A stretch of DNA of 64,000 bases from an uncultured Gammaproteobacteria bacterium (GTDB lineage: Bacteria > Patescibacteriota > Patescibacteriia > VMEV01 > CAYQCH01). The notes below the pieces were generated by a model. The model was not told the DNA's origin and searched no databases. It saw nothing but the letters and a program-made list of their open reading frames with translations. Position numbers and translations under genes: made by a program. Positions 11,701 through 54,024 of this stretch are shown here, piece by piece; within the stretch, counting starts at the first letter, position 1, and each line of letters opens with the position of its first letter. The stretch spans positions 13,047 through 77,046 of the forward strand of contig CAZDCG010000002.1 of the NCBI GenBank assembly GCA_964503955.1. The letters are read 5' to 3'.

Positions 11701-14700
11701 TTATACCAATAGGGAAGAAATTTGTTGGATTTCAGCAAGCAATTCTTTTGGTATATCAGCATTGTTGATTCTACCTTTCTTTCCAGCAGCGAGGCGTCTG
11801 ATCTGAAGCAGTAATGAACCTTTTTCTTTATCACCAAGAGATAGGGCATTAGGGATCTTGGGTGAGATGGCTTCAATCAGCGTTTTTTGAGCTCGAATCG
11901 CCCTTTTATCGATTTCTTTTGGTAATTTTTTCAATAGACTTTCCCATGCCTGATTCAACTCCAGCTGCAGCTCTTCAGGAGTTGGCTCGCGCAAGGATTC
12001 AATATATGTTTGCAGCTCCGTGAGTTTATCCCGTTTCTCAGCAGGAGTCTCTAACTGATCAAACTCATCCTGAAAGCCGTTAAGTGCTGCGTTGATATAT
12101 TCGCCATTTTCTTTTCTGGAGGCGGCGGTATTTCTTCCTTGTTCTACCAATTGCTGCCACTGCTTCTGTACGTCTTTTTCAGCATTTGCTTCAGTCTCTC
12201 TTCCGCTTTGTTCGATTTCACGTTCCCGGCTTACTAACGATTCTTTTAGTGTTTGCAGTTCAGTTGCCGAAAGTGTAGGTATCGGCTCTCGCTTTCCCTC
12301 CCCGTATCCAGGAGAAGATGGTCCTATCTCAAGTCCAAGCAATTGCCGGATGTGATAGACAGTGCCGCTGCGGCTTCTGTTAAATTGATCAAAATCTTTT
12401 TTATTAAGTCGCTCAATATCTTTTGCTATTGCCTTGAACGAATCTGATTGTTCCTTTGTTTTATCTGGCTTAGATGCGGAAGCCGGCGTTTCAATGAGGG
12501 ATTGGACTTTATTGATGAATACAACCATGTCCTGTTCAGCCTCTTGTCGTGCTTTTTTCTTTTCCTCCTCTGTAGCAGCCTTATTCAGCGCGTAAGCTAG
12601 TTCACGATTCAGAGCAGCATATCCGTGCATAATAGATCGAACCTGATCTTTTGAGAGTTTGGAGTCTGCTTCCTGCATTAGAGACCATGCCCTTAATCTG
12701 GTTTTTTCAGAAACCCCTGTCACATCGCTTGCTTTTTCCAATTTTTTTACGGTAACGGAAATAGGAGGCTTGCCTTCAGGTCGATCTCCTTTGGGAGATT
12801 CTTTTTTCGTTTTTTCTCTGATACCCCATTCATCAGCAATTTTGTCTATTTCTCGGTAGAATTCTGCGGGATCTTTCTTTTCGGATTTCAGAGCGTCATT
12901 CACCGTCTTTACGGCAGCATTAAGAAAATCGCGCTTCAATGCTTCCGTAACCGTTGGGGAGGAGAGCAGATTGTAGGCAGCTTCGTCTAATGCATGTTCC
13001 CTCCTTGAACGCTCTTTAGGGAGAATATTGTGTTGAACAAGCAATTTTGCCAGAGGGTTGATTGTCCTTCTTATTTCCTCATTCTCGGCAAGGCGCTGTT
13101 CCGTTTCTTGTAGAAGCGCTTCAATTTTTGCGATATGAGCCAGCAATTCACCCCGATTTTTGATAGCTTCGTAAGCCTTCTCGCCAGCGCTTATTCCAAT
13201 GAGCTGAATTCGATTCTTAACGGCTTCTTGATCAGGCTTTTTATCGCCATTTGAAAGAGATTTCTTCAAATCCTGATATTCTCCCCAAAGCCGTTCCTGG
13301 TCTTCCTTCCACTCTGGTGTCTCTGGTTTTGACGATGCCGGCTCATGTGCCGCATCCGGCGCTTCTCCTGAAACTTCCCCTGTGCCGGTCGATGAAGTGT
13401 CTGCTTCAGATCCGCTGGAACCTGTTTCTTTCGGCAAATCGGAAACAAGGGATTCAATGAGAGTCAGGTTGTAGTTCAAGTCGTTCAATAGCTTGGATTT
13501 CAGCATTCTGGTGCGTTCAATGAGTTTTGCATTGCTGAATTTGAGCAGATCTTTCTCAATGTTTTCTCGAATCTTTGTCACTGTTTCTGGGAGGGGATCA
13601 GGGGTATCAACTAAAATGCTATCTAATCGACTGGTGATTTCATCCTTGAGCGTCTCGGGGTTTTTGGCGTAGCGCTGAATCTCGTCTGGTAGGGATTCAG
13701 AAGCCTTGCTTCTCAGAAGTCCAATATTCAAATCGAGATCCTTTAACAATTGCCCCTGAAGCAAGCGGGAGCGTTCTTTTGAAGAAGCCTTGCTAAATTG
13801 ATCGATGATTTCTCTGGTTTTATTGAGAAGAGGTTTGATATCCTCTGGCAAATCCGCATCATCCATAGATTCGCCAAAACGGGCCTTGAGAATGCCTGAA
13901 AGTTTCTTTGAATATTCTTGCTGGAGAAGCACAGGTTCCTGCTCATATTTCCTATACACCTTGTAATGCTCAAGCGCGGATCGAATTTCAGCGAATTTTT
14001 CCTCGAGCAAAGAAAGATAGGTTGTTTTAAGAAGATTTTCATAAGACCCTTCTTTTGGCTTTTGAGCGTATTCAAGCCCCGCGTCCAATTGGGCGATCAG
14101 CTGCTGGATATGTTCTGGGAGATTCTTTTGCTCTGTATCAGTTCCAAGAACTTCGCGAATGGACTTCTGAAGAAATTCCTGAGCAACTTGTTTGAGTTGG
14201 TCTGGATTCTTTGTTGACTCCGCGCTATGTTCAAATCTGCCTGCGGTGCCTAGTTGGTCCATCAATTCTTCGATCTTGTCGAAAGCTTTGTACCGCTTCA
14301 CAACCGTGTCAGAAAGCACAAATTCTTTCATGTACCGGTTCACTTGTGCCACCAGTTCTTTCAAACGAGGCGGCTGGTTGTTAAGGTCATTGCCAAGCGC
14401 CTTATTCATTCTTTCGCTGATATGTTTCCTGTACAGGTCGGGATCTTCGAGGTAATCGATTCCGGCTTCATGCTCAATTTTGTCATCGCTTGTTGAAGAG
14501 ATGTGACCCTCATAAAGAGCGGCAATCTTTTTTCTCACGCCGCTTCTTCGCAATACATCCGTTACAGGCAAACCAGCAAGTTCTTGATAGAGTTCCATTA
14601 CCCGGTCAAGATCATAGCGGGCTCGTTCAAGATTATTTTCGTTCCCTTTGCTCGCCGCGTTTTCAACAATAGCTATCAATTCGGAGAAATGTTTCTTGTC

Positions 14701-15939
14701 GCGGGCTTCAGGTAATTGATCTTTAAGCTGGTACGCCTTTGCAAGAGCATTCACCGCCAAAGTCCACGATGATTCCTTGTACTGAGCCTGGCTAAGCTGC
14801 AAATGCCTCCTTCTTGTGTCCACAGCGGACAGAGCCTGCTTCAGCCCTTCGATCATCTTTTTGTAGGATGCCTTTTCATTGAAAGAAGACGAAGCCGCTA
14901 ATCCCTGCTCTTGTGCCGACTTCTCGTCTTGCTCAAGCAAAGCCAGCCGATTCTGATAATCGCTGAGCTTATCCTGAAGAAATGCTTCCTGCCTATCCAG
15001 AGCATTTGAAATGGTCCGCTGTTCCTGCTGGATCTGTTCTGCTTTATCCTTCACCAGCATTACTTCATCTTTCCTCAGCTCCGCAATCTTCTTGTTTGCC
15101 TGGTCAATCTCATCGTTATGCCGTTCATAGCTGGCCACGCCAGGAGCATCTTCAAGTGCGTCAGAGTTATTCTTCAAAAATCGATTTGCGTCTCTGGTTT
15201 TTCGAGTAACCTCCGCATTAACCTGGCGCAGCAGCTCGTTTGGGGCCAGATCCTGATTGCTTGAAAGATATTTTTTTAAATAAGCAGCCCGCTCTTTTTC
15301 AGGAACGACATCAAGCCCCTGAATCACTTTAAGAAAGGTATCCGCTTTTTTATCCACCCCTGCAATGACACGCTTTTGCTCTGCCGGGTTAACACTTGTG
15401 TCTATAATTTTCTCTTGCTTCTTTTGCTCGGCTTCCTGTTGCATGTACCGGTTGATCACTTGTCCGACAACAGGATAGTCTTTGAGTTTCTGCACCCATT
15501 TGGGCAGGCTGGATTTGGCAAGAATCTCCGGCTGAATCGGTTCAGCCGGAAGTTTGAGCATGCGCTCGTAGTTTTGCAGGACTTCGTTGCGGGCTTCTTC
15601 AAGCCTCGATAAAGCCCCCTTCATGGTGTCGATTGCTTTGAGCAGCGATTCAGGCGCTAGCGAAAGCTCTGAAAGCGCCTCATCGACCTCCGACTCTAGC
15701 CTTTCCATGCTCTTTTTCAATCTGTCGCGGTTGAGATCGACGAGATTGCGGACACTTTCCTGATCGGCACGAGATTTATAATCCTCTCTGAAGTATTGTG
15801 TATACCGGATAATATTGCTTGTCAGGTCGCGGATCTTGCGGCGTTGTGCTTCGATTTGAGCCGCATAGCGCTCCTCCTCCGGATTTGCCCGGCGCTCACT
15901 GGTTTCAGGTAATTCAAAAAGTTCCTTTGGAGTAGGCAT
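11701..15939 (-). CDS. Giant 1412-aa coiled-coil protein, cytoplasmic (no signal peptide or TM)
   Basis: Single uninterrupted 4.2-kb ORF. Composition is extremely E/K/L/Q/R-rich with heptad-like periodicity throughout. A Ser/Gly/Thr-rich linker lies mid-protein (GSSGSEADTSSTGTGEVSGEAPD). No Walker motifs were seen. Confidence 0.7.
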   Translation of the reverse strand: MPTPKELFELPETSERRANPEEERYAAQIEAQRRKIRDLTSNIIRYTQYFREDYKSRADQESVRNLVDLNRDRLKKSMERLESEVDEALSELSLAPESLLKAIDTMKGALSRLEEARNEVLQNYERMLKLPAEPIQPEILAKSSLPKWVQKLKDYPVVGQVINRYMQQEAEQKKQEKIIDTSVNPAEQKRVIAGVDKKADTFLKVIQGLDVVPEKERAAYLKKYLSSNQDLAPNELLRQVNAEVTRKTRDANRFLKNNSDALEDAPGVASYERHNDEIDQANKKIAELRKDEVMLVKDKAEQIQQEQRTISNALDRQEAFLQDKLSDYQNRLALLEQDEKSAQEQGLAASSSFNEKASYKKMIEGLKQALSAVDTRRRHLQLSQAQYKESSWTLAVNALAKAYQLKDQLPEARDKKHFSELIAIVENAASKGNENNLERARYDLDRVMELYQELAGLPVTDVLRRSGVRKKIAALYEGHISSTSDDKIEHEAGIDYLEDPDLYRKHISERMNKALGNDLNNQPPRLKELVAQVNRYMKEFVLSDTVVKRYKAFDKIEELMDQLGTAGRFEHSAESTKNPDQLKQVAQEFLQKSIREVLGTDTEQKNLPEHIQQLIAQLDAGLEYAQKPKEGSYENLLKTTYLSLLEEKFAEIRSALEHYKVYRKYEQEPVLLQQEYSKKLSGILKARFGESMDDADLPEDIKPLLNKTREIIDQFSKASSKERSRLLQGQLLKDLDLNIGLLRSKASESLPDEIQRYAKNPETLKDEITSRLDSILVDTPDPLPETVTKIRENIEKDLLKFSNAKLIERTRMLKSKLLNDLNYNLTLIESLVSDLPKETGSSGSEADTSSTGTGEVSGEAPDAAHEPASSKPETPEWKEDQERLWGEYQDLKKSLSNGDKKPDQEAVKNRIQLIGISAGEKAYEAIKNRGELLAHIAKIEALLQETEQRLAENEEIRRTINPLAKLLVQHNILPKERSRREHALDEAAYNLLSSPTVTEALKRDFLNAAVKTVNDALKSEKKDPAEFYREIDKIADEWGIREKTKKESPKGDRPEGKPPISVTVKKLEKASDVTGVSEKTRLRAWSLMQEADSKLSKDQVRSIMHGYAALNRELAYALNKAATEEEKKKARQEAEQDMVVFINKVQSLIETPASASKPDKTKEQSDSFKAIAKDIERLNKKDFDQFNRSRSGTVYHIRQLLGLEIGPSSPGYGEGKREPIPTLSATELQTLKESLVSREREIEQSGRETEANAEKDVQKQWQQLVEQGRNTAASRKENGEYINAALNGFQDEFDQLETPAEKRDKLTELQTYIESLREPTPEELQLELNQAWESLLKKLPKEIDKRAIRAQKTLIEAISPKIPNALSLGDKEKGSLLLQIRRLAAGKKGRINNADIPKELLAEIQQISSLLV

Positions 15940-28477: not shown

Positions 28478-29107
28478 ATGTCGGAAAATAAGGAACAGAG
28501 CACCGGCTCTGCTTTACCTGAGTTTACTCCGCAAGAGGTTGAATCCGGAGGCTCCATCAAAGACTTCTTTGTGGAATTGCTGCAGGTCATCATCATCGCG
28601 CTGGCGATCATTATCCCGGTTCGTTATTTTTTTATCACGCCTTTCTACGTGAAAGGAGCTTCCATGGTGCCAACCTTCCATGAGAGCGAGTATCTTGTCG
28701 TGGACGAGATCAGCTATCGATTCAAAGAACCGGTGAGGGGAGAAGTAATCGTCTTTCGCTATCCGCGCAATGAGAAGGAATTTTTTATCAAGCGCATTAT
28801 CGGCCTGCCTGGCGAGACCGTCCAAATTACAGGCAATAAGGTCTATATCAATGGCGAAGAGCTAAGCGAGCCGTATCTTGATTCGGAAACGAAAACCACG
28901 GGAGAAATTGTGGTTACGCTTCAGACGGACGAATTCTTTGTCCTTGGTGACAATCGCAGCTTCAGCCTCGACTCCCGCGCATTTGGTCCGCTCAAGGAAC
29001 GGTATATCGTCGGCCGGACCTGGATCCGCGGCTGGCCGTTTGACAAGATCATGATTTTTGAACCGCCTCAGTACGAATTGCCTTCACAGGTGGATTCGCA
29101 ATCTTAA
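28478..29107 (+). CDS. lepB: Signal peptidase I
   Basis: TM anchor. GASMVPTF (catalytic Ser box), KRIIGLPGE (Lys box) and GDNRSFSLDSR. Confidence 0.88.
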   Translation: MSENKEQSTGSALPEFTPQEVESGGSIKDFFVELLQVIIIALAIIIPVRYFFITPFYVKGASMVPTFHESEYLVVDEISYRFKEPVRGEVIVFRYPRNEKEFFIKRIIGLPGETVQITGNKVYINGEELSEPYLDSETKTTGEIVVTLQTDEFFVLGDNRSFSLDSRAFGPLKERYIVGRTWIRGWPFDKIMIFEPPQYELPSQVDSQS

Positions 29108-30863: not shown

Positions 30864-32477
30864 ATGCGAAGTTTGAAGCCCCATTTGCGCGGCTTTGCCG
30901 GGTACCTGATACTCGCGATTGTTGTGCTCATTGGCGCAAACGCTGTCTTTAACACCCCTGCCTTGGCGCAGGTAGATGTTGGATTGGAGCAGGCTGAGCA
31001 GATTGGACTTACAGGAACCGATCCTCGACTCATTGTCGCTCGCATTATTCAAGTAGCCCTCGGCGTGCTGGGTATCACCGCCGTGGGGCTTCTTATTTAT
31101 GCGGGCTTTTTGTGGATGACATCCGGCGGGGAAGACGAAAAAGTCGGCCGAGCAAAGACGCTTTTGCGAAATGCGTTGATCGGCTTGATCCTGATTCTGT
31201 CCGCATTTGCCATCGTGACCTATGTCTTCAGCATTTTGCGCCCTGATCTGTATTCAACGCCTCCGATCGGTTCGCGGGGAGGGATTGGCGGTATCGGAGG
31301 CGGCGGAGGTTTCCCGATCGGTGTCATCTCCTCGCATTACCCGGATCGAGGACAAACCAATGTCGCGCGCAATACCAATATCATGGTGACATTCACCGAG
31401 CCGATACTTGTTGAAAGCATTATCGATAATGCCGGAACACCAGATAATCCCGCTGATGATCGTTTAAATACGGAAAACATTTTTATCCGACGTTCGGCCG
31501 ATGATCCAAATGATGGACCTTTCGTGCCGGCCGCAGCGGCTGCGTCTGAAGACGGACGTTCCTTTGTCTTTGACCCGATTGATCTTCTTGGTTCGTCTGA
31601 AGAAAACACCCTTTATACCGTCGTGCTTGGGGAAGGAATCACGACCGCGCAGGGAAGAGGCGCATTTGGAAATTTCGGTGCCTATGCATGGGAATTTGAA
31701 GTGGGAACCTTTATCGATCTTGAGCCGCCGCAGGTGGAAAGCGTGATTCCGGCGCAGAGTTCAACGCATCCTCGCAATGTCGTGGTGCAAATCAACTTTA
31801 ATGAAGCAATGAATCCGCTTACGGCCAGCGGAGAAGTAGGGGCTGGTTTTGATGCGATCTCGATCCGCCAAGCGGACGGCAGCGTCGTGGAAGGCCGATA
31901 CATGATCAGCAATCAGTATCGGACCGTCGAATTTATCACCAATGATTTGTGCGGGAAGAATTCCTGCGGCGAAGACGTGTTTTGTTTGCCCGGAGATGCC
32001 GCACTGACAGCTCTCCTGCGTGCGGCGACAATCAGTTTGTCACCCCCTACGGCGGCTTTTCCATATGACGGATTAACGGATGCGGCGGCAAATTCGCTCG
32101 ACGGAAATCTTGACGGTTCCGCGCAAGGTCCGCAAACGGATAATTATACCTGGTCGTTTCAAACAACCAATCAAATCGATTTGACCGCGCCGGTTATTGT
32201 CTCGGTATCGCCAAATCCATTTTCTACCCAGGTCGATCTGAATGCTCCGGTTACGGCAACTTTCAGCAAACCGCTTCAATTCAGCACCATCAACCGTAAA
32301 TCGGTGAGCGTGGACGGCCTGGAAGATTACCGGTTGAATGCCAGTTCGCAAGGCGGGCAATCTCGTATCGACATTCTGCATCGAGGGCTTTTGGAAGAGA
32401 CAACCTATACGCCGGTTGTGACATCAGATGTTCGCGATCTTTATCAGAATTGTTATCGCCCTTGTGTCGGTCCTTAA
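30864..32477 (+). CDS. Surface protein with an N-terminal T4SS-pilin-like two-helix domain and SbsA-type Ig-like repeats
   Basis: Signal peptide, then IIQVALGVLGITAVGLLIYAGFLWMTSGGEDEKVGRAKTLLRNALIGLILILSAFAIVTYVF (the hydrophobic-SGG-KAK-hydrophobic pattern of CPR VirB2/TrbC-like pilin domains). Gly-rich linker GGIGGIGGGGG. At least three repeats of the PPxVxSVxPxxxxxxVxxxxxIxxxFxExM type. Confidence 0.6.
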   Translation: MRSLKPHLRGFAGYLILAIVVLIGANAVFNTPALAQVDVGLEQAEQIGLTGTDPRLIVARIIQVALGVLGITAVGLLIYAGFLWMTSGGEDEKVGRAKTLLRNALIGLILILSAFAIVTYVFSILRPDLYSTPPIGSRGGIGGIGGGGGFPIGVISSHYPDRGQTNVARNTNIMVTFTEPILVESIIDNAGTPDNPADDRLNTENIFIRRSADDPNDGPFVPAAAAASEDGRSFVFDPIDLLGSSEENTLYTVVLGEGITTAQGRGAFGNFGAYAWEFEVGTFIDLEPPQVESVIPAQSSTHPRNVVVQINFNEAMNPLTASGEVGAGFDAISIRQADGSVVEGRYMISNQYRTVEFITNDLCGKNSCGEDVFCLPGDAALTALLRAATISLSPPTAAFPYDGLTDAAANSLDGNLDGSAQGPQTDNYTWSFQTTNQIDLTAPVIVSVSPNPFSTQVDLNAPVTATFSKPLQFSTINRKSVSVDGLEDYRLNASSQGGQSRIDILHRGLLEETTYTPVVTSDVRDLYQNCYRPCVGP

Positions 32478-32480
32478 CCT

Positions 32481-35400
32481 ATGAAGCGGATTTTGCTGAC
32501 CATTTTCATCGCGCTTTCCTTCTTTCTTCCTGCTTCCTCCGTTCTGGCGCAGGAAGCGGGGGCGGATTCTCCTGTTGAAACCGTCGTCCAGGAAACATCA
32601 TCGGTAAGCACCGGCTGGAGAGTTGCGCAGATTATCGCGCTGGCCGGGGCCGTCATCAGCCTTGGCATGCTGATTTACGGGGCGGTGTTGTGGCGCAATG
32701 CCGTGCAGAATAATGATTTGCTCATGGCCGACCGCGGCCGTAATCTAACCGTCTTGTTCGGTATCGTTTTTTTCCTGTTCCTTGTTCTATTGCTTATCAG
32801 CTTTGTGGTAATTGCGCGCCAGCAGTCGCGCCAGACGGAGCAACAGCAGCAAATACAAACAACCGGTACCGGCGGATTGAGCGTTCGGGACTCACTCTTG
32901 CTTGTTGAGGCGATTCCAAATTCCGCGGTTCCTATCCGCAATGTTGCTGTTCAGCTGCTGTTCAACCAACCCGTCAGTCAGATCAATGTAGAACAGCATA
33001 TTTTGGTATCAGCGCAAGAAGGAGAAGGACCGGTGGTCGGAACCTGGACCGTGGAAGGGGAATATGCCGTCTTTCAGCCGAATCAAGCCTGTCCCGCGCC
33101 CAATCAGAATCTGCGCTGTTTTGATGCCAACCAAACCTTTGTTGTGACTATTGCACAGGAATTGACGAGCGAAGACGGGGATGCGTTCCGTTGCTCGCTT
33201 GCCGCATCTTCCGAGCAATGCCGGTTTACCTTCACGACGGGAGAAGCGGTTGATTCCACCCCTCCGACGGCGCGCATCTCCTTGCCGCTCAATGATGCCG
33301 CGGTGGCTCAGGATTCCGCGCAGCAGGTAGAAGCGCTGGCAAGCGACGATCTGGCGGTGGCTTCCTTGCACTTCTTCGCGGATGGAGAACGAATCGGCGT
33401 ATCAGCCGCGCCGGGCAATGAGTTGCAAACTTCTTTTCGGGCATCCGCCATTTGGTTGACGGAAGGGCTCGCCATTGGATCGATGCATACGATCCGGGCG
33501 GTTGCGTATGATTTCGCCGGCAGAACGGGCGAAGCAGTGCCCGTGCAGGTGGAAATTCTTCCCGCTTACTGTTTTGACGGCCAGCAGAATGAAGACGAAG
33601 AAGGGCTTGATTGCGGAGGGCCGACCTGCCGCGCCTGCCAGGGAGCGGTCTGCAGCAGCAATGAGGATTGCGCATCAGGACTTTGCTTTAACGGTGTCTG
33701 TCAGGAATTCCCGGTGATTGAAGAAGTGATTTATCCAAACGGCGCTCCGGGAAACCTTGTGACGATTCGCGGGAAGAATTTCGGATCCGAGCCTGGATCC
33801 GTGATTTTCCTTGGAGGAGCCAGTGATGCGGATAATGTACCGGGGCAGCTTCCGCCATGCGAAGCATATTGGACGAATCAGGAAGTCATTATCGAGGTTC
33901 CAGCAGGAGCTGTCAGCGGGCCGCTTCGGCTTGAAACGGCACAGGCGCTCTACGATACCACCGACGACAGCAAAGGAGAGCGCGTTGTATTTGAAGTAAA
34001 CGATCTTGTCCGTCCAACGCTCTGCGCTGTTTTGCCGCCTTCGCAACAGGTGGGGCGATCTGTTCAGATTATCGGCAAAGCGCTTGGCGAGGAACCTGGC
34101 AAGGTCTTCTTCGGACAGAATGCCGCCAGCCGCGTTCAGGGCTGGGCCGATGACATCATTTCAGAAGTTTTTCTACCATCCATGCAGGCAGGTCCGGTTT
34201 CGGTCAGCGTGGAAGCGGCTGGAGAACGAAGCAATCCTGTGCACTTCCTTGTGCAGGAATCCGATACATTGCCGTTCATTGAATCGATCACGCCTGACCG
34301 CGGACCTGTCGGACAAATGTTCAGTCTGCGCGGGCGGCATTTCACCGCATCCGCGCTGGTTCGTTTTCTTGATCCGCGGACTGGGGAAACCATCCTTGCT
34401 GATACGCGATTGCCCCGGGAATGCGAGCAATATATTTCCAATCAGCAGCGCGCGTATCGCGTGCCAAATCTCGAACCGGGAACATATCAGGTTTATCTCG
34501 AAACGGAAATCGGCCAAAGCAATAGCGTTGATTTTGTGGTCACCCGCGGAGAACGCCTGCCAGGCCTTTGCGGCATGACACCGGACAATGGCCCGCTTGG
34601 CATTGAGGTCACGCTGCACGGAGAAGGGTTTGGAAGCCAAGCCGGCGCCGTGCGGTTCACTCCGCGCATTGATGACACGCAAATTCTTTCCTGGCGCGAT
34701 AACCGCGTGCAGGCGGTTGTGCCTGCGACAGCACAGTCAGGTCCTGTACAGGTTGTGAACGCGGCGGGCGCTTTAAGCAATGCTTTGGATTTCACCATTG
34801 GAACCTGCAGCCCGGATACATGCTCTGAAGGTCTTGTTTGTTGCGGCTCAGGCTCATGCCAGGCAGCCGGCAGCTGTGCGCAGAATATTCCATACTGTTC
34901 GTATCAATGGGTCTTTAGCACAGGTGATGATCTTGGCGGGCCTCCACGGGTGATTGAAGACGCTTCCTGCAGAAGCAATACGCAAAGCCCTTCTCCGTAT
35001 AAAGACACAAAAGACGCATGTTTGAACGCGCAAATCTCGGCGCGGTTTACCCACGACATGCTCGACAACTCGCTTTCAACCGACAATATCGTTGTACATC
35101 GCTGCAATACCGGCGACTTGCTTGATTCATCTCAATGCCAGGTCGAGGTCAATCTTGCGAGTCTCACCATCATCAATGCGGGACAACCAGGCGAGGGATT
35201 CATTGCCGCGCCGCAGGTCGCTCTTGAACCGGATACCTGGTACGAAGTTGTGCTCAGCACCGGGTTTACGGCTGAAAACGGGCTATCCATGGCATCACCG
35301 TATCGTTGGGTCTTTAAAACGCAGGTGGGAGACGGCCAATGCCAGGTCGATCATATCGAAGTTACACCAGCGTCCGCCACGCTCAGGCAGCTGCTTGATC

Positions 35401-37427
35401 GACAATCCTATGCTGCTCTTCCGATCGCTTTGAATTGCAATATTCTGAATCCTGATGAATTCACCTGGGGATGGCTGAGTTCGGACACCTCAAAAGCGCA
35501 AGTATTCTTCTCAAACGAGCCTCGAAATACGGCCACGGCCGTTGGACCAACTGATCCAGAACCGCCGGTACGCATCATTGGCCAATTGCCTGAATATGGG
35601 CTTTCTGATGAAGGACTTCTTACCGTGCGTTTGCAGCCGCCGCTGGTTGTGAACAAATGGCCGAATTGCGGCTCTGCCTGCGTGAATGCAATGATCGGTG
35701 CTCGCTTTGATCAAGCCATGAATGAATCTTCCGTGACCAACACGGCCAATGTTCAGCTATTCCGTTGTGCGGATCGCACCTGCGCTCGAGAGGGGATGGT
35801 TTCATCCGGGGTTTCTTCTCTGCGGTATAACCAAACCGATCAATCCCTCTTTTTCCTGCCGGCAGCCGGCGCTCTTGCTCAGAACACAACCTATCGCGTG
35901 GTTTTAAAGAATCTGACCAGCACCAGCGGCTTGGGATTAGGAAACCTCAATTATGACAGCGATGAGACAAGGGGGCTCGACAGTTATTCCTGGGTTTTCA
36001 GCGTGAGAGACAGCGCGGACCTTTGCACGGTTGAGGATGTCGCGGTGATCCCTTCTTTTGCTTCTTCTTCACTGATTGGTGAAGAATTCGATTATTTCTC
36101 TTTGCCGCTCTCTCCGCCGGATGCCTGCAGTCCTGAAGGACAATACCTCAATCCGGAAGCATATAACTGGGGATGGGCTTCCAGCCAGGCTGCGGTTGGA
36201 ACCGTGAGCACGGACGATATTGTTCCTCCTTCAGGATTCGTCGATCCGTATCAGATCACGAGAAGTACAGGACCTGGAGAAACTTCCATTACGGCACGCA
36301 CGCAGGACGCGAGCGGTGACGGCGATTTGCTTGTTGCCTGCGGATTCCAATCCGATCTTGATTGTCCGGCTCCGGCAACCGTGGATACCTTTGGCGTCGG
36401 CTCGGATTCCTGCTGCCGCGAGCGTCCAAGTGTGCGTTCATTCAATCCGCCTTCCGGATCAGAATCTGTTTGCACGACGCTTGGTATCGAGGTGCAATTC
36501 AACCAGGAAATGAATATCAGTTCCTTGCTCAGCAATATAGTCCTTGAGCGTTTCAACGGCTCGCAGCCATGCGCCGCGGTGCAGACAACCGCCTGGCAGA
36601 GAATGAAGGGGGTTGTGCATCGACTGCTTGCCTGGATGCTTCCGCCGGCATCAGCGCAGACTGAACATTGGTGTCAGATCCCTGCCAATATTGTGGTTAC
36701 GCAATACCTGGAAGGTTCCAGAGCGACCGTTTTTCCTCAATCTGAACTTGCGCAAAATACGCAATACCGTGTGCGCGTACAGGGGGATGCGGCCATCAAT
36801 GACGGAGTGAATCAGGGAGTAAGAAGCGCCTTTGATGTTTCCATGAATGGCGATGCCGTAAGCCTGTTCAGCACGGGCGAGGCGAAATGTAATCTTGATC
36901 TTGTTGATGTGATCATCACACCTCCGGGGAAACCTGGTTCAAAAGATGTCTTCTTCTGCGCGGTTCGCAACGATTGTCCGGGGGACGTGAATCCGGCAGT
37001 AGACGGCAATCAGCATCGATATGTTGCTGTTGGGCGCGATTTACGAGGTTTTGTCGTGCCAGGCAATTACCGATGGACAACAAACTCCGGCTCATTGGCC
37101 GGCTTGAACGCAACCGACCAGCAGGAGGTTGAAGTCAGCACGCAGCCGGAAAACGGAAATGCTTATGTTACCGTTCACGCGAACGCGGTGGCACCATCGG
37201 AGGGAAGCGTTTCGCGAACCGTCATGATCAAAATCTTCCTCTGTGAAAATCCATGGCCAAGCATTCTCGATTTCCCGTATACCGACTTCGATTTCAACTA
37301 TGATACATTCTACTGCCGCGATTTTGGCGAACCTGGTGTTTTCGATGACCTTCCTCCGCTCTCATCGCCGATTGTCGGAGACGCGGTAGGGGGCTTCCTG
37401 CACGAACGATTATTCATTGTTGAATGA
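32481..37427 (+). CDS. Giant 1648-aa surface protein with an N-terminal pilin-like domain, at least three IPT/TIG domains, Ig-like domains and a Cys-rich module
   Basis: N-terminus VAQIIALAGAVISLGMLIYGAVLWRNA...LFGIVFFLFLVLLLISFVVIA. IPT/TIG-like units VIEEVIYPNGAPGNLVTIRGKNFG, IESITPDRGPVGQMFSLRGRHF and LCGMTPDNGPLGIEVTLHGEGFG. Cys-rich block CFDGQQNEDEEGLDCGGPTCRACQGAVCSSNEDCASGLCFNGVCQ. Confidence 0.65.
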   Translation: MKRILLTIFIALSFFLPASSVLAQEAGADSPVETVVQETSSVSTGWRVAQIIALAGAVISLGMLIYGAVLWRNAVQNNDLLMADRGRNLTVLFGIVFFLFLVLLLISFVVIARQQSRQTEQQQQIQTTGTGGLSVRDSLLLVEAIPNSAVPIRNVAVQLLFNQPVSQINVEQHILVSAQEGEGPVVGTWTVEGEYAVFQPNQACPAPNQNLRCFDANQTFVVTIAQELTSEDGDAFRCSLAASSEQCRFTFTTGEAVDSTPPTARISLPLNDAAVAQDSAQQVEALASDDLAVASLHFFADGERIGVSAAPGNELQTSFRASAIWLTEGLAIGSMHTIRAVAYDFAGRTGEAVPVQVEILPAYCFDGQQNEDEEGLDCGGPTCRACQGAVCSSNEDCASGLCFNGVCQEFPVIEEVIYPNGAPGNLVTIRGKNFGSEPGSVIFLGGASDADNVPGQLPPCEAYWTNQEVIIEVPAGAVSGPLRLETAQALYDTTDDSKGERVVFEVNDLVRPTLCAVLPPSQQVGRSVQIIGKALGEEPGKVFFGQNAASRVQGWADDIISEVFLPSMQAGPVSVSVEAAGERSNPVHFLVQESDTLPFIESITPDRGPVGQMFSLRGRHFTASALVRFLDPRTGETILADTRLPRECEQYISNQQRAYRVPNLEPGTYQVYLETEIGQSNSVDFVVTRGERLPGLCGMTPDNGPLGIEVTLHGEGFGSQAGAVRFTPRIDDTQILSWRDNRVQAVVPATAQSGPVQVVNAAGALSNALDFTIGTCSPDTCSEGLVCCGSGSCQAAGSCAQNIPYCSYQWVFSTGDDLGGPPRVIEDASCRSNTQSPSPYKDTKDACLNAQISARFTHDMLDNSLSTDNIVVHRCNTGDLLDSSQCQVEVNLASLTIINAGQPGEGFIAAPQVALEPDTWYEVVLSTGFTAENGLSMASPYRWVFKTQVGDGQCQVDHIEVTPASATLRQLLDRQSYAALPIALNCNILNPDEFTWGWLSSDTSKAQVFFSNEPRNTATAVGPTDPEPPVRIIGQLPEYGLSDEGLLTVRLQPPLVVNKWPNCGSACVNAMIGARFDQAMNESSVTNTANVQLFRCADRTCAREGMVSSGVSSLRYNQTDQSLFFLPAAGALAQNTTYRVVLKNLTSTSGLGLGNLNYDSDETRGLDSYSWVFSVRDSADLCTVEDVAVIPSFASSSLIGEEFDYFSLPLSPPDACSPEGQYLNPEAYNWGWASSQAAVGTVSTDDIVPPSGFVDPYQITRSTGPGETSITARTQDASGDGDLLVACGFQSDLDCPAPATVDTFGVGSDSCCRERPSVRSFNPPSGSESVCTTLGIEVQFNQEMNISSLLSNIVLERFNGSQPCAAVQTTAWQRMKGVVHRLLAWMLPPASAQTEHWCQIPANIVVTQYLEGSRATVFPQSELAQNTQYRVRVQGDAAINDGVNQGVRSAFDVSMNGDAVSLFSTGEAKCNLDLVDVIITPPGKPGSKDVFFCAVRNDCPGDVNPAVDGNQHRYVAVGRDLRGFVVPGNYRWTTNSGSLAGLNATDQQEVEVSTQPENGNAYVTVHANAVAPSEGSVSRTVMIKIFLCENPWPSILDFPYTDFDFNYDTFYCRDFGEPGVFDDLPPLSSPIVGDAVGGFLHERLFIVE

Positions 37428-37478: not shown

Positions 37479-40124
37479 ATGAAACGACTTTTCTTTTTCT
37501 TCGCCTTCGCGCTGCTCGCAGCACTTCCATTCGCGAATGCTCACGCGCAATCCGGTCCGCGCGACGCGATCGCCATACGCGTGGTCCCAAATCCGGATCG
37601 CATGCCGCCGCTTTTGTGGTATCGAAACAATGTCCCAAATCCCGGAGCTCCTGTTCCGCTCGAGATTGACGGATATCCTGCCGTGCGCGACGGGCGGACG
37701 GTTTACGTGGCTGCAACCAATTACGCACCTGAAGCCGGCGCGCTTTATAGTAATATCTACCTCATTTCACATAGCGAAGCGGCAGGGGAGAAGGTGCAGG
37801 CGGTTTTTGAAGAATTTCTACAGGAATTCAGATTCAACTCTAATATCGCCGATGATGAGACCCGGGCGCAGCTGCGCCGCGATATGAGGCGAGCCAATGA
37901 TCTTTATGCGATCCGGTTGAACCTGGAGCAATACCGCCTCAGAACAGGCTCGTATCCAAACTTTGAAGCGGGCAGCTATCTGCCAAATACCACGTATAGC
38001 ACGTGGCCGTCATGGCAAACGACATTAGGCAATTTGCTAGGAACTGCCTTGCCGGTTGATCCTCGCAACCAGTTTATCGGGTGTGAAGCGCCTTTTGACG
38101 GTTCAACCTGCTGGGATCAGACCGCCAGACAATTTGCTTGTCCGCCGCAAGCGTACGTGTACGGATACCGTGCAACAGGAAGCGGCGCGACCTATCAGCT
38201 ATTTGCGAATTACGAGTACAAGGGGCCTGGCAATTGGCAATCCGTTACATTGCAGCAGCAATCAGGCGACCAGTGTTTCAATTTCGCTTTTTCAGACGTT
38301 TCAGACCCTGACGGAGATGGAATCCTAACAGGAGCGGATAATTGTGAATTTGAGCATAACCCAGATCAAACTGACAGTGATGCCGACGGCATTGGCGACG
38401 CATGCGATCTCTGCCCGAATGATCCCACCAATGACCGCGATAGTGACGGTATTTGCGGCAATATCGACAATTGTCCGACGATTGGCAATCCGTCTCAGGC
38501 GGATCTTGATGATGACGGAATCGGCGATGCCTGTGATTTTCAAGGATGCGGGAACAATGTCACCGAAGGATCCGAGGTCTGCGACGGTCAGTCCGGCATC
38601 GGACCGTTTCAAAGCTGCTCCGCTGATTGCCGGTCGGTTATCCAGCTCAGTTATTGCGGCGACGGGGTGGTCAACAATCCCAATGACCAGGGACTTTTTG
38701 AAGAGTGCGATGGCAATAGTGAAGAAATCATCTGCGAACAGCGGATCAACGGCTATGTAACGCAGCGCCGAAGAGAGTGCCGCGATACCTGCCGGTTTAC
38801 GCCATTTACTGCTTGCGAACCGATTGAATATGCGGGAGACGGTATTGTTAACGGATTTGAACAATGCGACGCAGGCGATCAAAACGGTGTTCAGTGCCAG
38901 GCTGCTTATGATCAGACCTGCCAATACTGCACTTCCGATGGACGTTTTGAATTGGCTCAAGGACCAACATGCGGCGATGGAATCGTTAATGGACCGGAGC
39001 AATGTGATGAAGGCGTGAACAATGGACGCGTTTGCACGCCCGCCTATGGAAGAACGTGTACGTATTGCGGCAACTCCTGCCGCATCGAAACGGTTCCGGC
39101 TCCATTCTGCGGGGACGGGACAAGAAATATTCCGTTTGAAGAATGCGATTCTGAAGAGGAGGATATCCCTTGTGAATCGCCGCCGGGGTATTTATATAAA
39201 AAACGCTTTTGCGCCACGCAATCAACCGCTTCGAATGTCGCCTGCAGCTGGCTGCCATTTGAAGCCTGCCGCTCGATCGGTTCCTGCGGAGACGGCATGA
39301 TCAATGGTCCGGAACCATGCGATGATGCCAAAACACCTGGCTTATGTGAACAATGCAAGATCAAGGATAATACAGTGAGCCTTACCTACAATATCGAAGG
39401 GACGAGAATCGCTTCAGCATGCGTGGGCAAAAAATCAGCCTGGCCGACAAATTTCCGCTTTGGAGGAGCTATCCCATTGACAACCGCAGAATTGAATCAA
39501 ACCTGTAATAATGCGGCAATCATCAATCCCTTTACCCGGGATGGGCAGCCATTCAGTTCTCCTTGGGGATGGCCAAGAAACGGCATGCTTTCTACGCTTC
39601 CGATTTCTATGAGGGTGGAAACTATTTTCTGGCAGCATTGGAATTGCGGCGCGCATTTTGTTGCATTGCGAAATTCCGGCGTTGAGGTAACGAGCTCGCC
39701 GTTCCATGTTCCAAAACAGGGAAAACATTGCTCAAATGACTGGCAAGTTCAGGTTGTAGACACTGGCGGCGTAACAGCCGACCAAATCCTGGCGGATGAA
39801 AGCGGTTCCCAGCCAGGCCATCTCCCGGGAGGAATCCTTAAGGGGTACTACCAGTTCGGGCAGACGAGATCGATTCGAACGTCTGATCGCATCGTCGTGC
39901 TGGAGCGTCTTTCTGAACGCAGAGATACCATGGGAAATCTGCTGCCGAATGATACATATAAACTTCTCAGCACTAGCGGCAATGGATTCATGGTCTGGTT
40001 TGGAAATACCGCCACAACGCTTGCAAGCCAGGGAAGCTCTTCCACGCCAAATACCAGCACTTTCGTACTCGGCTGCGTAGATTTCGACAATAATCGCACT
40101 TGTGACTTCATGCAGGAACTATGA
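37479..40124 (+). CDS. Secreted 881-aa protein with thrombospondin type-3 calcium-binding repeats and CGDG...CD cysteine-rich repeats
   Basis: Signal peptide MKRLFFFFAFALLAALPFANAHA. TSP3-like units DPDGDGILTGADNCEFEHNPDQTDSDADGIGDACDLCPNDPTNDRDSDGICGNIDNCPTIGNPSQADLDDDGIGDACD. At least six repeats of the CGDG(V/I/T)xNxxExCD type. Confidence 0.65.
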   Translation: MKRLFFFFAFALLAALPFANAHAQSGPRDAIAIRVVPNPDRMPPLLWYRNNVPNPGAPVPLEIDGYPAVRDGRTVYVAATNYAPEAGALYSNIYLISHSEAAGEKVQAVFEEFLQEFRFNSNIADDETRAQLRRDMRRANDLYAIRLNLEQYRLRTGSYPNFEAGSYLPNTTYSTWPSWQTTLGNLLGTALPVDPRNQFIGCEAPFDGSTCWDQTARQFACPPQAYVYGYRATGSGATYQLFANYEYKGPGNWQSVTLQQQSGDQCFNFAFSDVSDPDGDGILTGADNCEFEHNPDQTDSDADGIGDACDLCPNDPTNDRDSDGICGNIDNCPTIGNPSQADLDDDGIGDACDFQGCGNNVTEGSEVCDGQSGIGPFQSCSADCRSVIQLSYCGDGVVNNPNDQGLFEECDGNSEEIICEQRINGYVTQRRRECRDTCRFTPFTACEPIEYAGDGIVNGFEQCDAGDQNGVQCQAAYDQTCQYCTSDGRFELAQGPTCGDGIVNGPEQCDEGVNNGRVCTPAYGRTCTYCGNSCRIETVPAPFCGDGTRNIPFEECDSEEEDIPCESPPGYLYKKRFCATQSTASNVACSWLPFEACRSIGSCGDGMINGPEPCDDAKTPGLCEQCKIKDNTVSLTYNIEGTRIASACVGKKSAWPTNFRFGGAIPLTTAELNQTCNNAAIINPFTRDGQPFSSPWGWPRNGMLSTLPISMRVETIFWQHWNCGAHFVALRNSGVEVTSSPFHVPKQGKHCSNDWQVQVVDTGGVTADQILADESGSQPGHLPGGILKGYYQFGQTRSIRTSDRIVVLERLSERRDTMGNLLPNDTYKLLSTSGNGFMVWFGNTATTLASQGSSSTPNTSTFVLGCVDFDNNRTCDFMQEL

Positions 40125-49253: not shown

Positions 49254-50549
49254 CTAAAACTGGGCGGCTTCAGTGGATCCCGCGAGTGCGGTGGTCTTCA
49301 CTTCGCTGCCTTCGATCGTCTGGCGGATCTGGTCGTAGAGACCGGTCCCCACTTCCTGTTGATGCGCGGCGAACGTGTAGCCGAGCTCTCTCGCGAGGAA
49401 CTCCTCCTGCTGCAGTTCGCTGTACGCGGCCATGCCATGGTCGCGGTAGGCGCGTGCAAGCTTGAAGGAGTGATAGTTGTTGCTGTGGATTCCTGCGAGG
49501 GTCACGAACTGGAACACGTAGCCGTACTCGGCAAGTTGCGCCTGGAATGCGGCGATCTCGCCAAGATCCAGGTTGCGCCGCCAGTTGAAGGAAGGCGAGC
49601 AGTTGTACGCCAGGAGCTTGCCAGGGTGTTCAAGGAAGAACTCCTCGGCGAACTCGCGGGCGTAGCCGACATCGGGCGTGGAGGTCTCACACCAGATCAT
49701 GTCGGCGTACCTTCCATACGCCTTCGCGCGGGCGATGGCGGACTCGATCCCGTTCTGGACCTCGTAGAAACCGTTGGCATCGCGCCTGCCGGTGATGAAA
49801 GGCTGGTCACGGGGATCGATGTCGGACGTGAGCAAGGTCGCGGAGTCCGCGTCGGTTCGCGCCACAATGATGGTGGGCACGCGGTAACTGTCCGCAGCGA
49901 GCCGTGCTGCGACGAGATTCTTCTCGGCCATTCGGGTGGGGATCAGAACCTTCCCGCCCAAGTGGCCGCACTTCTTCTCACCGCCGAGCTGATCTTCGAA
50001 GTGGACGCCGGCTGCTCCAGCCTCGATCATCGCCTTCATCAGCTCAAACGCGTTCAGCGGGCTGCTTGGCGCGTCGCCGTCCGCCACCATGGGCAGGAGG
50101 AAATCGACGTAACCGTCGTCTCCAGGCAAGACACGTCTGGCCCACTGAATCTTGTCAGCCTGCTGCTGCGCCCGTGCGATCCGTCTGACAAGCGTCGGAA
50201 CGGTGTTGACGGGATACAGGGCAAGGTCCGGATACGTCGTCTCCGCCGTATTGGCGTCGGCCGCAGCCTGCCAGCCGGAGATGTAGAGCGCCTGCAAGCC
50301 CGCACGAGCGTATTGCTGCGCCTGCATGCCGGTGAGCGCTCCCAGCGTGTTCACGTAGCCGTTGCGGGCCTTGCCATGAAGCAGATCCCAGAGGCGTTCG
50401 GCCGCGTACCTGGCGTGCGGGTACTCCGGTAGGAGCGACCCGTACAGGTCAACGGCCTTGTCAGGCGCATATGGCCTGTGTACGTTCTTCCAGCGGCGAT
50501 TCTCCTTCCAGTCTTCGTTCAGAGACGCGGTCAACTTTCCCCGATCCAT
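49254..50549 (-). CDS. aceA: Isocitrate lyase
   Basis: KKCGHLGGKVL signature (K[KR]CGH). About 431 aa from MDRGKL. Local GC is about 63% against a window background of about 50%. Confidence 0.85.
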   Translation of the reverse strand: MDRGKLTASLNEDWKENRRWKNVHRPYAPDKAVDLYGSLLPEYPHARYAAERLWDLLHGKARNGYVNTLGALTGMQAQQYARAGLQALYISGWQAAADANTAETTYPDLALYPVNTVPTLVRRIARAQQQADKIQWARRVLPGDDGYVDFLLPMVADGDAPSSPLNAFELMKAMIEAGAAGVHFEDQLGGEKKCGHLGGKVLIPTRMAEKNLVAARLAADSYRVPTIIVARTDADSATLLTSDIDPRDQPFITGRRDANGFYEVQNGIESAIARAKAYGRYADMIWCETSTPDVGYAREFAEEFFLEHPGKLLAYNCSPSFNWRRNLDLGEIAAFQAQLAEYGYVFQFVTLAGIHSNNYHSFKLARAYRDHGMAAYSELQQEEFLARELGYTFAAHQQEVGTGLYDQIRQTIEGSEVKTTALAGSTEAAQF

Positions 50550-50817
50550 GGGCCTACCTTTCAGATTGGCCCCCCCAACAAGTGTTTCCCACATGACAAC
50601 TGAAGAAAGAACGCGCATCTCCGTTTGCTTTCACAATCAGAACCCTGCGATCACCTGGAGATGCTGAAAAAGCGTAACAGGAACATTGAATTCTTGTCAA
50701 TTGGTGACGATAGTGTTTGAAAGAGAAAGAAAGGCTAATGTCAGCAAAATTTGACGACAGTTTGCAAAAAGTGCCTATTCACCCAAAAAAACAATGTTTT
50801 TGCGATCTTGGGTCATG

Positions 50818-53059: not shown

Positions 53060-53974
53060 ATGAAGATTTTAGTGAGCGGGGGAGCAGGATTTATCGGATC
53101 GCATCTTACGCATTGTCTGCTGGACGAAGGGCATGAGGTGATTGTGCTTGATGACTTGAGTTCGGGGCAGAGACGCAATCTCGCCAAAGGCGTTCAGCTC
53201 ATCAAAATGGATATCGCTCATCCGCGTTTACGCAAAAAATTGCCGAAAACCATAGATATCATTTATCATCTTGCCGCGCAGATAGACGTACGAAAATCGG
53301 TTCATGATCCGGTTAAGGACGCGGCCATCAATGTGCTTGGCACCGTTCAGCTCCTTGAATACGCGAAAGAAGCCGCGGCAAAGCAGCTTATTTTTTCCTC
53401 AAGCGGAGGCGCTATTTACGGGGAAGCAGCCGTGTATCCCACGCCCGAAACGGCTCCTGAACAGCCGCTTTCACCGTATGGAACGGCAAAACTGAGCGCG
53501 GAGCAGTATGTCCATCTTTATGCGCGCTTGTACGGCCTTCATACAACGGTTCTGCGTTACGCGAATGTCTATGGTCCCGGACAAGCCGGCAGCAAAGAAT
53601 CCGGTGTCATCGCGATCTTTTCCGAGCGCGCGCGAAAGAATCTCCCTTTGACCGTTCACGGTGATGGCCGTCAAACCAGAGATTTCGTTTACGTTAAGGA
53701 TGTGGTTTTGGCAAACCTTGCCGCGCTCAGGCAGCAGGTTTCAGGTATTTTTAATATCGGCACGGGAGTGGAGACCTCGATCAATGAGCTGATTGATCTG
53801 CTGAAATCCCTCTCAGAATCCGAGCTGAACATTCGTTATGAACAAGCGAAACAAGGGGACTTGCCTCGCAGCGTGCTTGATTGTTCGCGCGCAGCCGATC
53901 GCTTGAACTGGAAAGCGAAAACCTCGCTGCCAGAGGGATTGCGTCTTACGTTTGCTGCTTTGAATGCCGAGTAA
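53060..53974 (+). CDS. NAD-dependent epimerase/dehydratase (UDP-glucose 4-epimerase-like)
   Basis: MKILVSGGAGFIGSHL Rossmann GxxGxxG. SPYGTAK (YxxxK catalytic motif). Confidence 0.8.
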   Translation: MKILVSGGAGFIGSHLTHCLLDEGHEVIVLDDLSSGQRRNLAKGVQLIKMDIAHPRLRKKLPKTIDIIYHLAAQIDVRKSVHDPVKDAAINVLGTVQLLEYAKEAAAKQLIFSSSGGAIYGEAAVYPTPETAPEQPLSPYGTAKLSAEQYVHLYARLYGLHTTVLRYANVYGPGQAGSKESGVIAIFSERARKNLPLTVHGDGRQTRDFVYVKDVVLANLAALRQQVSGIFNIGTGVETSINELIDLLKSLSESELNIRYEQAKQGDLPRSVLDCSRAADRLNWKAKTSLPEGLRLTFAALNAE

Positions 53975-54024
53975 AATTTGCTATACTATCAACAGCCCAC
54001 ACCCTTGTTCAAGGGTGTTTTTAT

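Follow-up and report, generated by a model that had tools for sequence, protein, structure and literature searches.

Can a pilin serve as the membrane anchor of a giant surface protein? The question is raised by a stretch of 64,000 nucleotides from a Patescibacteria genome (assembly GCA_964503955.1, contig CAZDCG010000002.1, positions 13,047 to 77,046 of the forward strand; hereafter the window), in which two adjacent open reading frames (ORFs), termed P1 (537 amino acids, aa) and P2 (1648 aa), are separated by 3 nt. A first-pass annotation, made from the letters alone, had read the N-termini of both proteins as pilin-like domains fused to large ectodomains; the two ORFs are as it described them, and the peptide strings that it quoted are all present. 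The answer reached here, with a probability of about 60%, is that P1 and P2 are Sec-exported surface proteins that are conserved as a pair and function together, their pilin-type hairpins packing in the membrane, within a core envelope or adhesion structure that includes calcium-binding transmembrane (TM) partners. Coordinates of the features are given in Table 1.

P1 belongs to the pilin family PF18895 (T4SS_pilin; T4SS, type IV secretion system), as the first-pass annotation had proposed. It scores 33.0 bits (E = 6.4e-8, profile positions 11-71 of 71), above the Pfam gathering cut-off of 26.6 bits. The only proteins retrieved by its first 140 residues are stand-alone PF18895 ones (112-163 aa), to which the module is 39-54% identical, polar loop included (E = 1e-19 to 1e-33); scored against a hidden Markov model (HMM) of the small pilins, the modules of the P1 and P2 families reach approximately 111-113 bits, as high as stand-alone pilins. 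P1 also resembles NF045849, the pilin-like conjugal transfer family of Mycoplasma integrative and conjugative elements (ICEs), at 30.9 bits (E = 1.6e-7), under the NCBIfam cut-off of 40 bits; all 19 of the related small modules match NF045849 (best E = 3.5e-11), while five match TrbC (PF04956) weakly and three match pLS20_p028. These matches are consistent with a link between PF18895 and the two-helix proteins of conjugation systems. P1 itself has no match to PF04956, and no match of P1 or P2 reaches the 27.9-bit cut-off of that family. Searched against PDB sequences, the small-pilin profile returned only designed 'Pizza' propellers, an artefact of summed repeats, and neither VirB2 nor TraA, and fold comparison likewise retrieved no solved conjugative pilin. 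A type IV pilin identity (type IV pilus, T4P, or type II secretion system, T2SS, pseudopilin) was ruled out: both proteins have Sec-type n-h-c signals, ending ALA/Q in P1 and VLA/Q in P2, and two helices, and no type IV pilin family of Pfam matches either of them.

The layout of the anchor was derived from hydropathy, charge, an AlphaFold2 (AF2) model and family conservation. Kyte-Doolittle hydropathy marks hydrophobic segments at residues 11-29, 61-79 and 104-122 of P1 and at residues 4-22, 51-69 and 93-111 of P2, which bears out the claim that each protein starts with a signal and two hydrophobic helices bracketing a short polar loop. The P1 signal ends in an AxA/Q signal peptidase I motif (ALA35/Q), whose A35, with Q next to it, hardly varies across the family alignment; the A-Q site is also kept across the alignment of the P2 clade, and cleavage of both signal peptides is predicted. 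In the AF2 model of P1, built from a 27-sequence family alignment (mean predicted local distance difference test score, pLDDT, 82.1), a signal helix (7-30) precedes a hairpin of helices 54-86 and 91-125 with a four-residue turn between them, and a beta-rich ectodomain occupies residues 155-537; the PF18895 match covers residues 60-121. The loop motif of P1, YAGFLWMTSGGEDEKVGRAK, has invariant G/W/T/G positions in common with the small pilins. Across 145 modules of the family the net charge is -2.3 in the N-flank, +0.76 in the loop and -1.0 in the C-flank, a pattern that fits a topology with the N-terminus outside, the loop inside and the C-terminus outside.

Behind the hairpin of P1, residues 126-150 have pLDDT below 50 and form a disordered linker that contains the hinge GGIGGIGGGGG (residues 139-149, nt 31278-31310); both the hinge and the Ig-like repeats beyond it, reported in the first pass, were recovered. 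In P1 orthologues the linker is rich in Gly and Pro, with a longest run of 24 G in one locus (L023). A reading of the hinge as a slippage or phase-variation tract was rejected because its Gly codons are mixed and form no homopolymer tract. In one P1 orthologue, a frameshift inside the poly-Gly linker splits the gene into an apparent stand-alone pilin of 155 aa (P0001) and a Big_5 protein of 386 aa (P0041) on a single 5379-bp Logan contig; the split is probably an assembly error, and it illustrates how the fused form can be mis-annotated as a small pilin.

The P1 ectodomain is modelled with pLDDT above 90 and matches Big_5 (PF13205) in three stretches at 101.2 bits, above the gathering threshold. 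It carries invariant Cys and Asp/Asn motifs (SHYP, RNT, CGxNSCGxxVFCLP, NSLDGNxDG and DIYQNCYxPC). Foldseek aligns it with bacterial immunoglobulin-like (Ig-like) arrays, namely the BIg domains of LdtMt2 and the S-layer proteins SbsC (E = 3.8e-9) and Sap; these matches are generic for Ig arrays and their template-modelling scores (TM-scores) are low. In P2, Big_5 (102.1 bits, five stretches) and TIG (PF01833; 57 bits, three stretches) both exceed their gathering thresholds, and Big_7 (PF17957; 23.5 bits) falls slightly under its cut-off of 24.1. P1 ends in YQNCYRPCVGP and P2 in HERLFIVE; neither has an LPXTG sorting signal or a C-terminal TM segment, and neither matches an SLH domain in Pfam, so that sortase-dependent or SLH-type anchoring of the pair was ruled out.

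For P2 the first-pass claim of a pilin module is partly supported, through a probable ancestry and not through a direct match. Its two helices (approximately residues 47-71 and 89-112) bracket the loop RNAVQNNDLLMADRGRN; the anchor retains the helices and the string YGAVLW, and the loop motif of the pilin family is lost. PF18895 matches neither P2 nor any of its eight close orthologues, and TrbC reaches only 14.3 bits, or 22.9 bits when the N-terminus is scanned alone. A direct profile-profile comparison of the P2 N-terminus with the small pilins (hhalign, 43.7% probability over 24 columns) proved too weak, and collinear whole-protein homology was used in its place. P2 has orthologues of 1646-1680 aa and PF18895-bearing homologues of 1690-2719 aa, and it is collinear from residue 1-3 with three PF18895-carrying giants (P0150, P0151 and P0154) of a group of 2004-2719 aa. 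A further giant of 3354 aa (P0289) has the order PF18895 (above threshold), Big_5, Big_7, TIG, and a clear module is present in 65 of 67 P2 orthologues, at about 111 bits against the small-pilin HMM, the same as P1. Because of this collinearity, domain order and presence among orthologues, the P2 anchor is best read as a diverged copy of PF18895; in the window it is 31% identical to the P1 module over 65 aa.

The fusion is no product of chance: hundreds of homologues share it. At E <= 1e-3, 456 homologues of full-length P1 were found; nearly all of the 120 best of them listed combine PF18895 with Big_5 at lengths of 526-864 aa and come from Patescibacteria, and their public names are only 'Ig-like domain-containing protein' or 'hypothetical'. 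In a survey of one genome per GTDB species, relatives of P1 occur in at least 523 species-representative genomes. Their record titles include Komeili-, Falkow-, Uhr-, Buchanan- and Magasanikbacteria, lineages that GTDB places in class ABY1. Among the records with related loci (L008-L087), many Patescibacteria metagenome-assembled genomes (MAGs) of one large batch (binchicken, SRP and ERP co-assemblies) bear the title 'uncultured Gammaproteobacteria bacterium'; to judge by their gene content, this is evidently a mislabel or a placeholder.

A small-pilin profile searched against 1.84 billion proteins (E <= 1e-3) matched 74,234 cluster representatives. The 52 best single-module representatives comprise 37 stand-alone proteins and 15 fusions (29%) of up to 3689 aa; the module is N-terminal in all 15, and seven of these are 2030 aa or longer. 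N-terminal fusion is thus a common and conserved architecture rather than an oddity of this genome, and the view that such pilins are normally stand-alone proteins of about 100 aa is half true. The architecture is visible in precomputed Pfam annotations; no description of a PF18895/VirB2 module fused to a large protein was found in the literature searched, whose coverage left most subscription journals outside. In a supplement of Kuroda et al., a Paceibacteria MAG has a PF18895 gene of 1230 nt, which is supportive and silent on function. A further arrangement, here called polypilins, accounts for 98 of the 150 top small-pilin profile matches: two to ten or more PF18895 modules stand in tandem within one ORF (among P0171-P0318), as in proteins of 1775 aa (P0196), 820 aa (P0172) and 247 aa (P0179). 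The last contains two complete modules (Pfam, two stretches) with a signal-peptidase-like site, AHAQ/G, between them; polypilins could be real polyproteins or read-through gene calls.

Within P1, the hairpin is the best-conserved part, with a mean pairwise identity of 54.7%, compared with 46.5% for the ectodomain, 27.3% for the linker and 25.6% for the signal peptide. Both proteins are conserved like housekeeping proteins: at a distance where HisS is 33%, Der 38%, FtsA 55% and FtsZ 67% identical, P1 is 43% and P2 33% identical. The anchors of the pair also co-evolve. When the 75-aa hairpins of P1 and P2 were compared, those from the same genome were 63.1% identical, against 51.2 +/- 0.65% for permuted pairs (0 of 10,000 permutations reached the observed value); among the 59 genomes ranked, the partner from the same genome came first in 20 and within the top three in 40. 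For paralogues older than the clade, distance would be expected to be independent of the genome, and the excess points to concerted evolution or co-evolution. It implies a shared constraint on the anchors, which may be mutual contact, one common partner or gene conversion. Such conservation and co-evolution of the hairpin are not expected of a passive anchor.

The pair occupies a fixed site. Among the 80 best P1 matches, examined with 10 kb on either side of the pair, the gene order is nearly throughout pth-der-LCP-lepB-hisS-S21-like-P1-P2-TSP3 TM protein-TM protein-ybeY-(dagK)-ftsA-ftsZ-nrdR. P1 carries the pilin module in 80 of 80 loci, and a P2-like giant lies 3' of P1 in 67 of 72, the remaining five having truncated pilin-module ORFs; the giants range from 1544 to more than 3400 aa, complete ones reaching 3452 aa. 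A homologue of the S21-like ORF lies directly upstream of P1 in 66 of 67 loci, and two single-TM proteins are conserved between P2 and ybeY-ftsA-ftsZ. The window as a whole is a housekeeping region (dnaG, rpoD, ATP synthase, der, lepB, hisS, ybeY, ftsA, ftsZ, nrdR, htrA, comEC, mraY and aspS). The cognate ATPase envisaged in the first-pass annotation did not turn up: the window contains no T4SS gene and no T4SS or T4P ATPase, the roughly 1-1.2 kb past each window end on short Logan contigs adds no T4SS gene, and no VirB4/VirD4-type ATPase lies within 10 kb of the pair in the 80 loci, all Walker-A-bearing unlabelled ORF clusters having been checked. The only secretion-type ATPase near the pair in these loci is a PilB-type T2SSE ATPase (PF00437, 414 bits; L040:4356-6059, +) approximately 4 kb upstream of P1, in the place usual for lepB-hisS. 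The closest stand-alone pilins are found in arrays of 5-11 PF18895 genes (L088 and L090), and these arrays too have no T4SS ATPase within 10 kb.

From these observations the following mechanism can be proposed. P1 and P2 would be exported through Sec, and signal peptidase I would remove their signal peptides; the product of lepB, just upstream, is the candidate processing enzyme. The PF18895 hairpin would stay in the cytoplasmic membrane, with the mature N-terminus outside, the short basic loop inside and the C-terminus outside, and the Gly- or Gln-rich linker would take the Ig-like ectodomain through the wall, three Big_5 domains in the case of P1 and more than 1500 aa of Big_5, TIG and Big_7 domains in the case of P2. 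The two anchors may pack together, or on one shared partner, as pilin subunits do, because the module is also that of the stand-alone pilins, varies least of all parts of P1 and co-evolves between the two proteins. The product is probably a heteromeric surface fibre or adhesion complex with the two downstream calcium-binding TM proteins; it would be a core part of the envelope whose genes lie beside those for division, not an accessory of a T4SS locus. Several points weigh against this proposal. Gene conversion between the adjacent paralogues, whose nucleotide identity reaches 87% in one locus (L045), could explain the likeness of the anchors without physical interaction. In the sub-clade of the window the P2 anchor has diverged far from that of P1, which weakens the view that the anchors must match here. 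The cytoplasmic loop motif, strongly conserved and common to the stand-alone pilins, fits extraction by a VirB4-type ATPase as well. Promoter and terminator scans gave counts no higher than the shuffled expectation, and the synteny figures cover the top P1 matches.

The same module allows P1 and P2 to be viewed as subunits of a VirB2-type T4SS pilus, either minor ones or those of the tip; the T4SS would draw the hairpin out of the membrane, and it would co-polymerise with stand-alone PF18895 pilins from arrays elsewhere. Since such pilins have an outward-facing C-terminus, the giant ectodomain would decorate the tip, or first-assembled end, as an adhesin. This is possible, with the odds against it. 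The likeness of the P1 hairpin and polar loop to stand-alone pilins, the small-pilin HMM scores of the P1 and P2 modules, a hairpin more conserved than the ectodomain and a predicted topology compatible with outward display are all as this explanation would have it. T4SSs with arrays of VirB2-like pilins are moreover widespread in Patescibacteria, ABY1 included, where a PrgB-like adhesin was not detected (PMC12102498), and the pilin arrays of Southlakia epibionticum are essential (PMC10633639). No T4SS gene, however, lies in the window or within 10 kb of the pair in the 80 loci, the nearest stand-alone arrays are not beside T4SS ATPases either, and the fixed site by ftsA/ftsZ and the housekeeping-like conservation look like those of a core envelope component. 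In this genome the loop motif of P2 is lost, and since no solved conjugative pilin was retrieved by sequence or by fold, pilus formation by PF18895 proteins is itself only putative. A 'mega-pilin' proposal, that P1 and P2 are VirB2-type modules with giant adhesin ectodomains built into, or at the tip of, a T4SS-type pilus of monoderm ultrasmall bacteria, is doubtful.

A core envelope role would also suit an S-layer or coat, with P1 and P2 as membrane-anchored blocks of the paracrystalline surface layer of the candidate phyla radiation (CPR) and the hairpin serving for lateral packing, by analogy with the two-component S-layers of archaea. Universal presence in a fixed place by envelope and division genes and the housekeeping-like conservation agree with this explanation, as do the Foldseek matches to SbsC and Sap, the conserved calcium-binding TSP3 partners downstream and the ribosomal-protein-like gene directly upstream, with no terminator-like site between, which would suit high expression. 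The fold matches, however, are of the generic, low-scoring kind, the Pfam scan finds neither SLH nor another known S-layer anchoring domain, and the more than two-fold variation in P2 length is more adhesin-like than lattice-like; a lattice function is unlikely. Very improbable is the view that both proteins simply have a signal peptide and an ordinary two-TM anchor, their similarity to pilins being noise from hydrophobic composition. The matches of P2 to pilin models are indeed below threshold and stand among many spurious matches to membrane proteins. P1, in contrast, exceeds a curated Pfam threshold, its identity to stand-alone pilins (E = 1e-19 to 1e-33) is not confined to the TM stretches but includes the polar loop, the family modules score as small pilins do, and the hairpin is the most conserved region and co-evolves between the paralogues. 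The preferred reading remains that of a co-functioning surface pair with pilin-type anchors in a core envelope or adhesion structure.

P1 and P2 can be compared with several known systems. In VirB2, TrbC and TraA, signal peptidase I cuts off a leader, a short charged loop joins two hydrophobic helices, and the N- and C-termini are both external. The pair shares this layout of leader, two helices and loop, although the sequence signal is weak (as in the TrbC score of P2); the classical pilins, unlike P1 and P2, are small and encoded within T4SS operons, and some are cyclised head to tail, which would preclude a C-terminal fusion. The pilin-like Mbov_0395 protein of Mycoplasma ICEs (NF045849) and pLS20_p028 are two-helix membrane proteins of monoderm conjugation systems, but they are small and borne on an ICE or a plasmid, and neither is known to form a pilus. 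T4P minor pilins with large C-terminal domains (TcpB/CofB type) prime assembly and sit at the tip. Like P1 and P2 they have an N-terminal pilin module bearing a large extra domain; this is an analogy only, as their module is unrelated: it has one N-terminal helix, and a prepilin peptidase processes its class III signal peptide.

The closest counterparts are the stand-alone PF18895 pilins of the same phylum (PMC12102498, PMC10633639), which like P1 have a signal peptide, a short acidic N-terminal extension, two helices and the loop [YF]xG[FW]xWMTxGG...KAKK. They differ in being 112-165 aa long, in lacking an ectodomain and in forming tandem arrays of 2-11 genes that, according to the literature, are often near virB4; P1 and P2, in contrast, carry Ig-like ectodomains of 400 to more than 1500 aa behind a Gly-rich linker and occupy their housekeeping locus away from T4SS genes. 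In ectodomain the pair is more like the giant proteins of CPR bacteria, such as those of Vampirococcus lugosii (1392-4163 aa), for which host contact or a fibrous surface was inferred (PMC8080830), and the Ig-like adhesins and S-layer proteins of Gram-positive bacteria (SbsC and Sap): these are also very large, rich in Ig-like domains and similar in fold. Their anchors are LPXTG, SLH, single-TM or unknown, and the literature searched holds no report for them of a VirB2-like hairpin anchor, of pairing as in P1 and P2 or of a fixed locus.

The surroundings of the pair vary among lineages. An additional PF18895-module gene lies between P1 and P2 or just 5' of P1 in L007 and L047 (382 aa), L057 (171 aa), L070 (174 aa), L073 (242 aa) and L077 (127 aa), so the locus can host stand-alone pilin-like genes. 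In the window P2 is followed by P3, whose presence is lineage-variable: a P3-like ORF follows P2 in 8 of the 80 loci (L008, L009, L011, L037, L064, L073, L084 and L085). Residues 139-196 of P3 contain a weak T2SS-G/pseudopilin-like globular segment (PF08334, 13 bits) without the pilin N-terminal helix, and an 831-aa P1 homologue (P0053) has a C-terminal extension with 'ALxxYxxxxGxFP' motifs that resemble P3. Further downstream, approximately 16 kb from the pair, is a ComEC competence channel (PF03772, 157 bits; 53881..55500, +), to which no T4SS gene adjoins; according to the literature, the T4SS loci of ABY1 are frequently accompanied by genes for competence and recombination. The window further encodes an isocitrate lyase family protein (PF00463, 337 bits; 49254..50618, -), while the genome is in other respects typical of Patescibacteria with reduced metabolism; the GC content around it is 0.565 at 48-50 kb, compared with about 0.50 elsewhere, and the gene was possibly acquired horizontally. 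A 1412-aa ORF (11701..15939, -) has no Pfam match and no TM segment, and lies in a stretch of low GC content (0.444) and strongly negative AT skew.

Table 1. Features of the P1-P2 locus; coordinates are positions in the window.
Feature	Coordinates	Strand	Basis
P1 gene, 537 aa, PF18895 and three Big_5	30864..32477	+	ORF, Pfam, homologues, AF2
P1 signal peptide, aa 1-35, predicted signal peptidase I cleavage after ALA35	30864..30968	+	hydrophobic segment 11-29
P1 mature N-terminal extension and PF18895 hairpin, aa 36-125	30969..31238	+	Pfam, AF2, conservation
P1 flexible linker, aa 126-152, with poly-Gly hinge	31239..31319	+	pLDDT, identity, codons
P1 ectodomain, three Ig-like (Big_5) domains	31320..32474	+	Pfam, invariant columns, pLDDT, Foldseek
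P2 gene, 1648 aa, five Big_5, three TIG, Big_7, Cys-rich knots	32481..37427	+	ORF, Pfam, orthologues
P2 signal peptide, aa 1-23, predicted cleavage after VLA23/Q	32481..32549	+	hydrophobic segment 4-22
P2 diverged pilin-like hairpin (putative), aa 45-113	32613..32819	+	hydropathy, sub-threshold TrbC, hhalign, collinear alignment
P2 Gln/Thr/Gly-rich linker, aa 113-133, RQQSRQTEQQQQIQTTGTGG	32817..32879	+	sequence; position as for the Gly/Pro linkers of orthologues
Small basic S21-like ORF directly upstream of P1	30546..30806	+	PF01165 18.4 bits, below the gathering cut-off of 27
lepB (signal peptidase I), two to three genes upstream	28478..29107	+	Peptidase_S26 annotation in orthologous loci, conserved position
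P3, 881-aa secreted TSP3/Cys-rich repeat protein	37479..40124	+	Pfam TSP_3 37.7 bits
Two single-TM proteins, 207 aa (bacterial TSP3 calcium-binding repeats) and 328 aa	40801..42414	+	PF18884 58.5 bits, TM segments

Patescibacteria account for a large part of bacterial diversity, and the ways in which they construct their envelope and attach to hosts are largely obscure. Their VirB2-like pilins, recently recognised and essential in the one genetically tractable species, have been regarded as small, and a T4SS-associated adhesin has yet to be found (PMC12102498, PMC10633639, PMC12857230). What is new here is that the same module also anchors two large Ig-like surface proteins, conserved as a pair next to the division genes of at least 80 species and with relatives in at least 523. 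Built on a known module family, this architecture is widespread, conserved and, in the literature searched, undescribed; it widens the role of a 'pilin' family from filament subunit to general assembly or anchoring module. Should P1 and P2 be subunits of a T4SS pilus after all, they would be the first conjugative-type pilins fused to an adhesin, and would supply the adhesin reported missing from T4SS surveys of Patescibacteria and a handle on the contact between epibiont and host. P1 and P2 point to a core surface structure in a lineage of class rank, and they are concrete candidates for work on the Patescibacteria surface.

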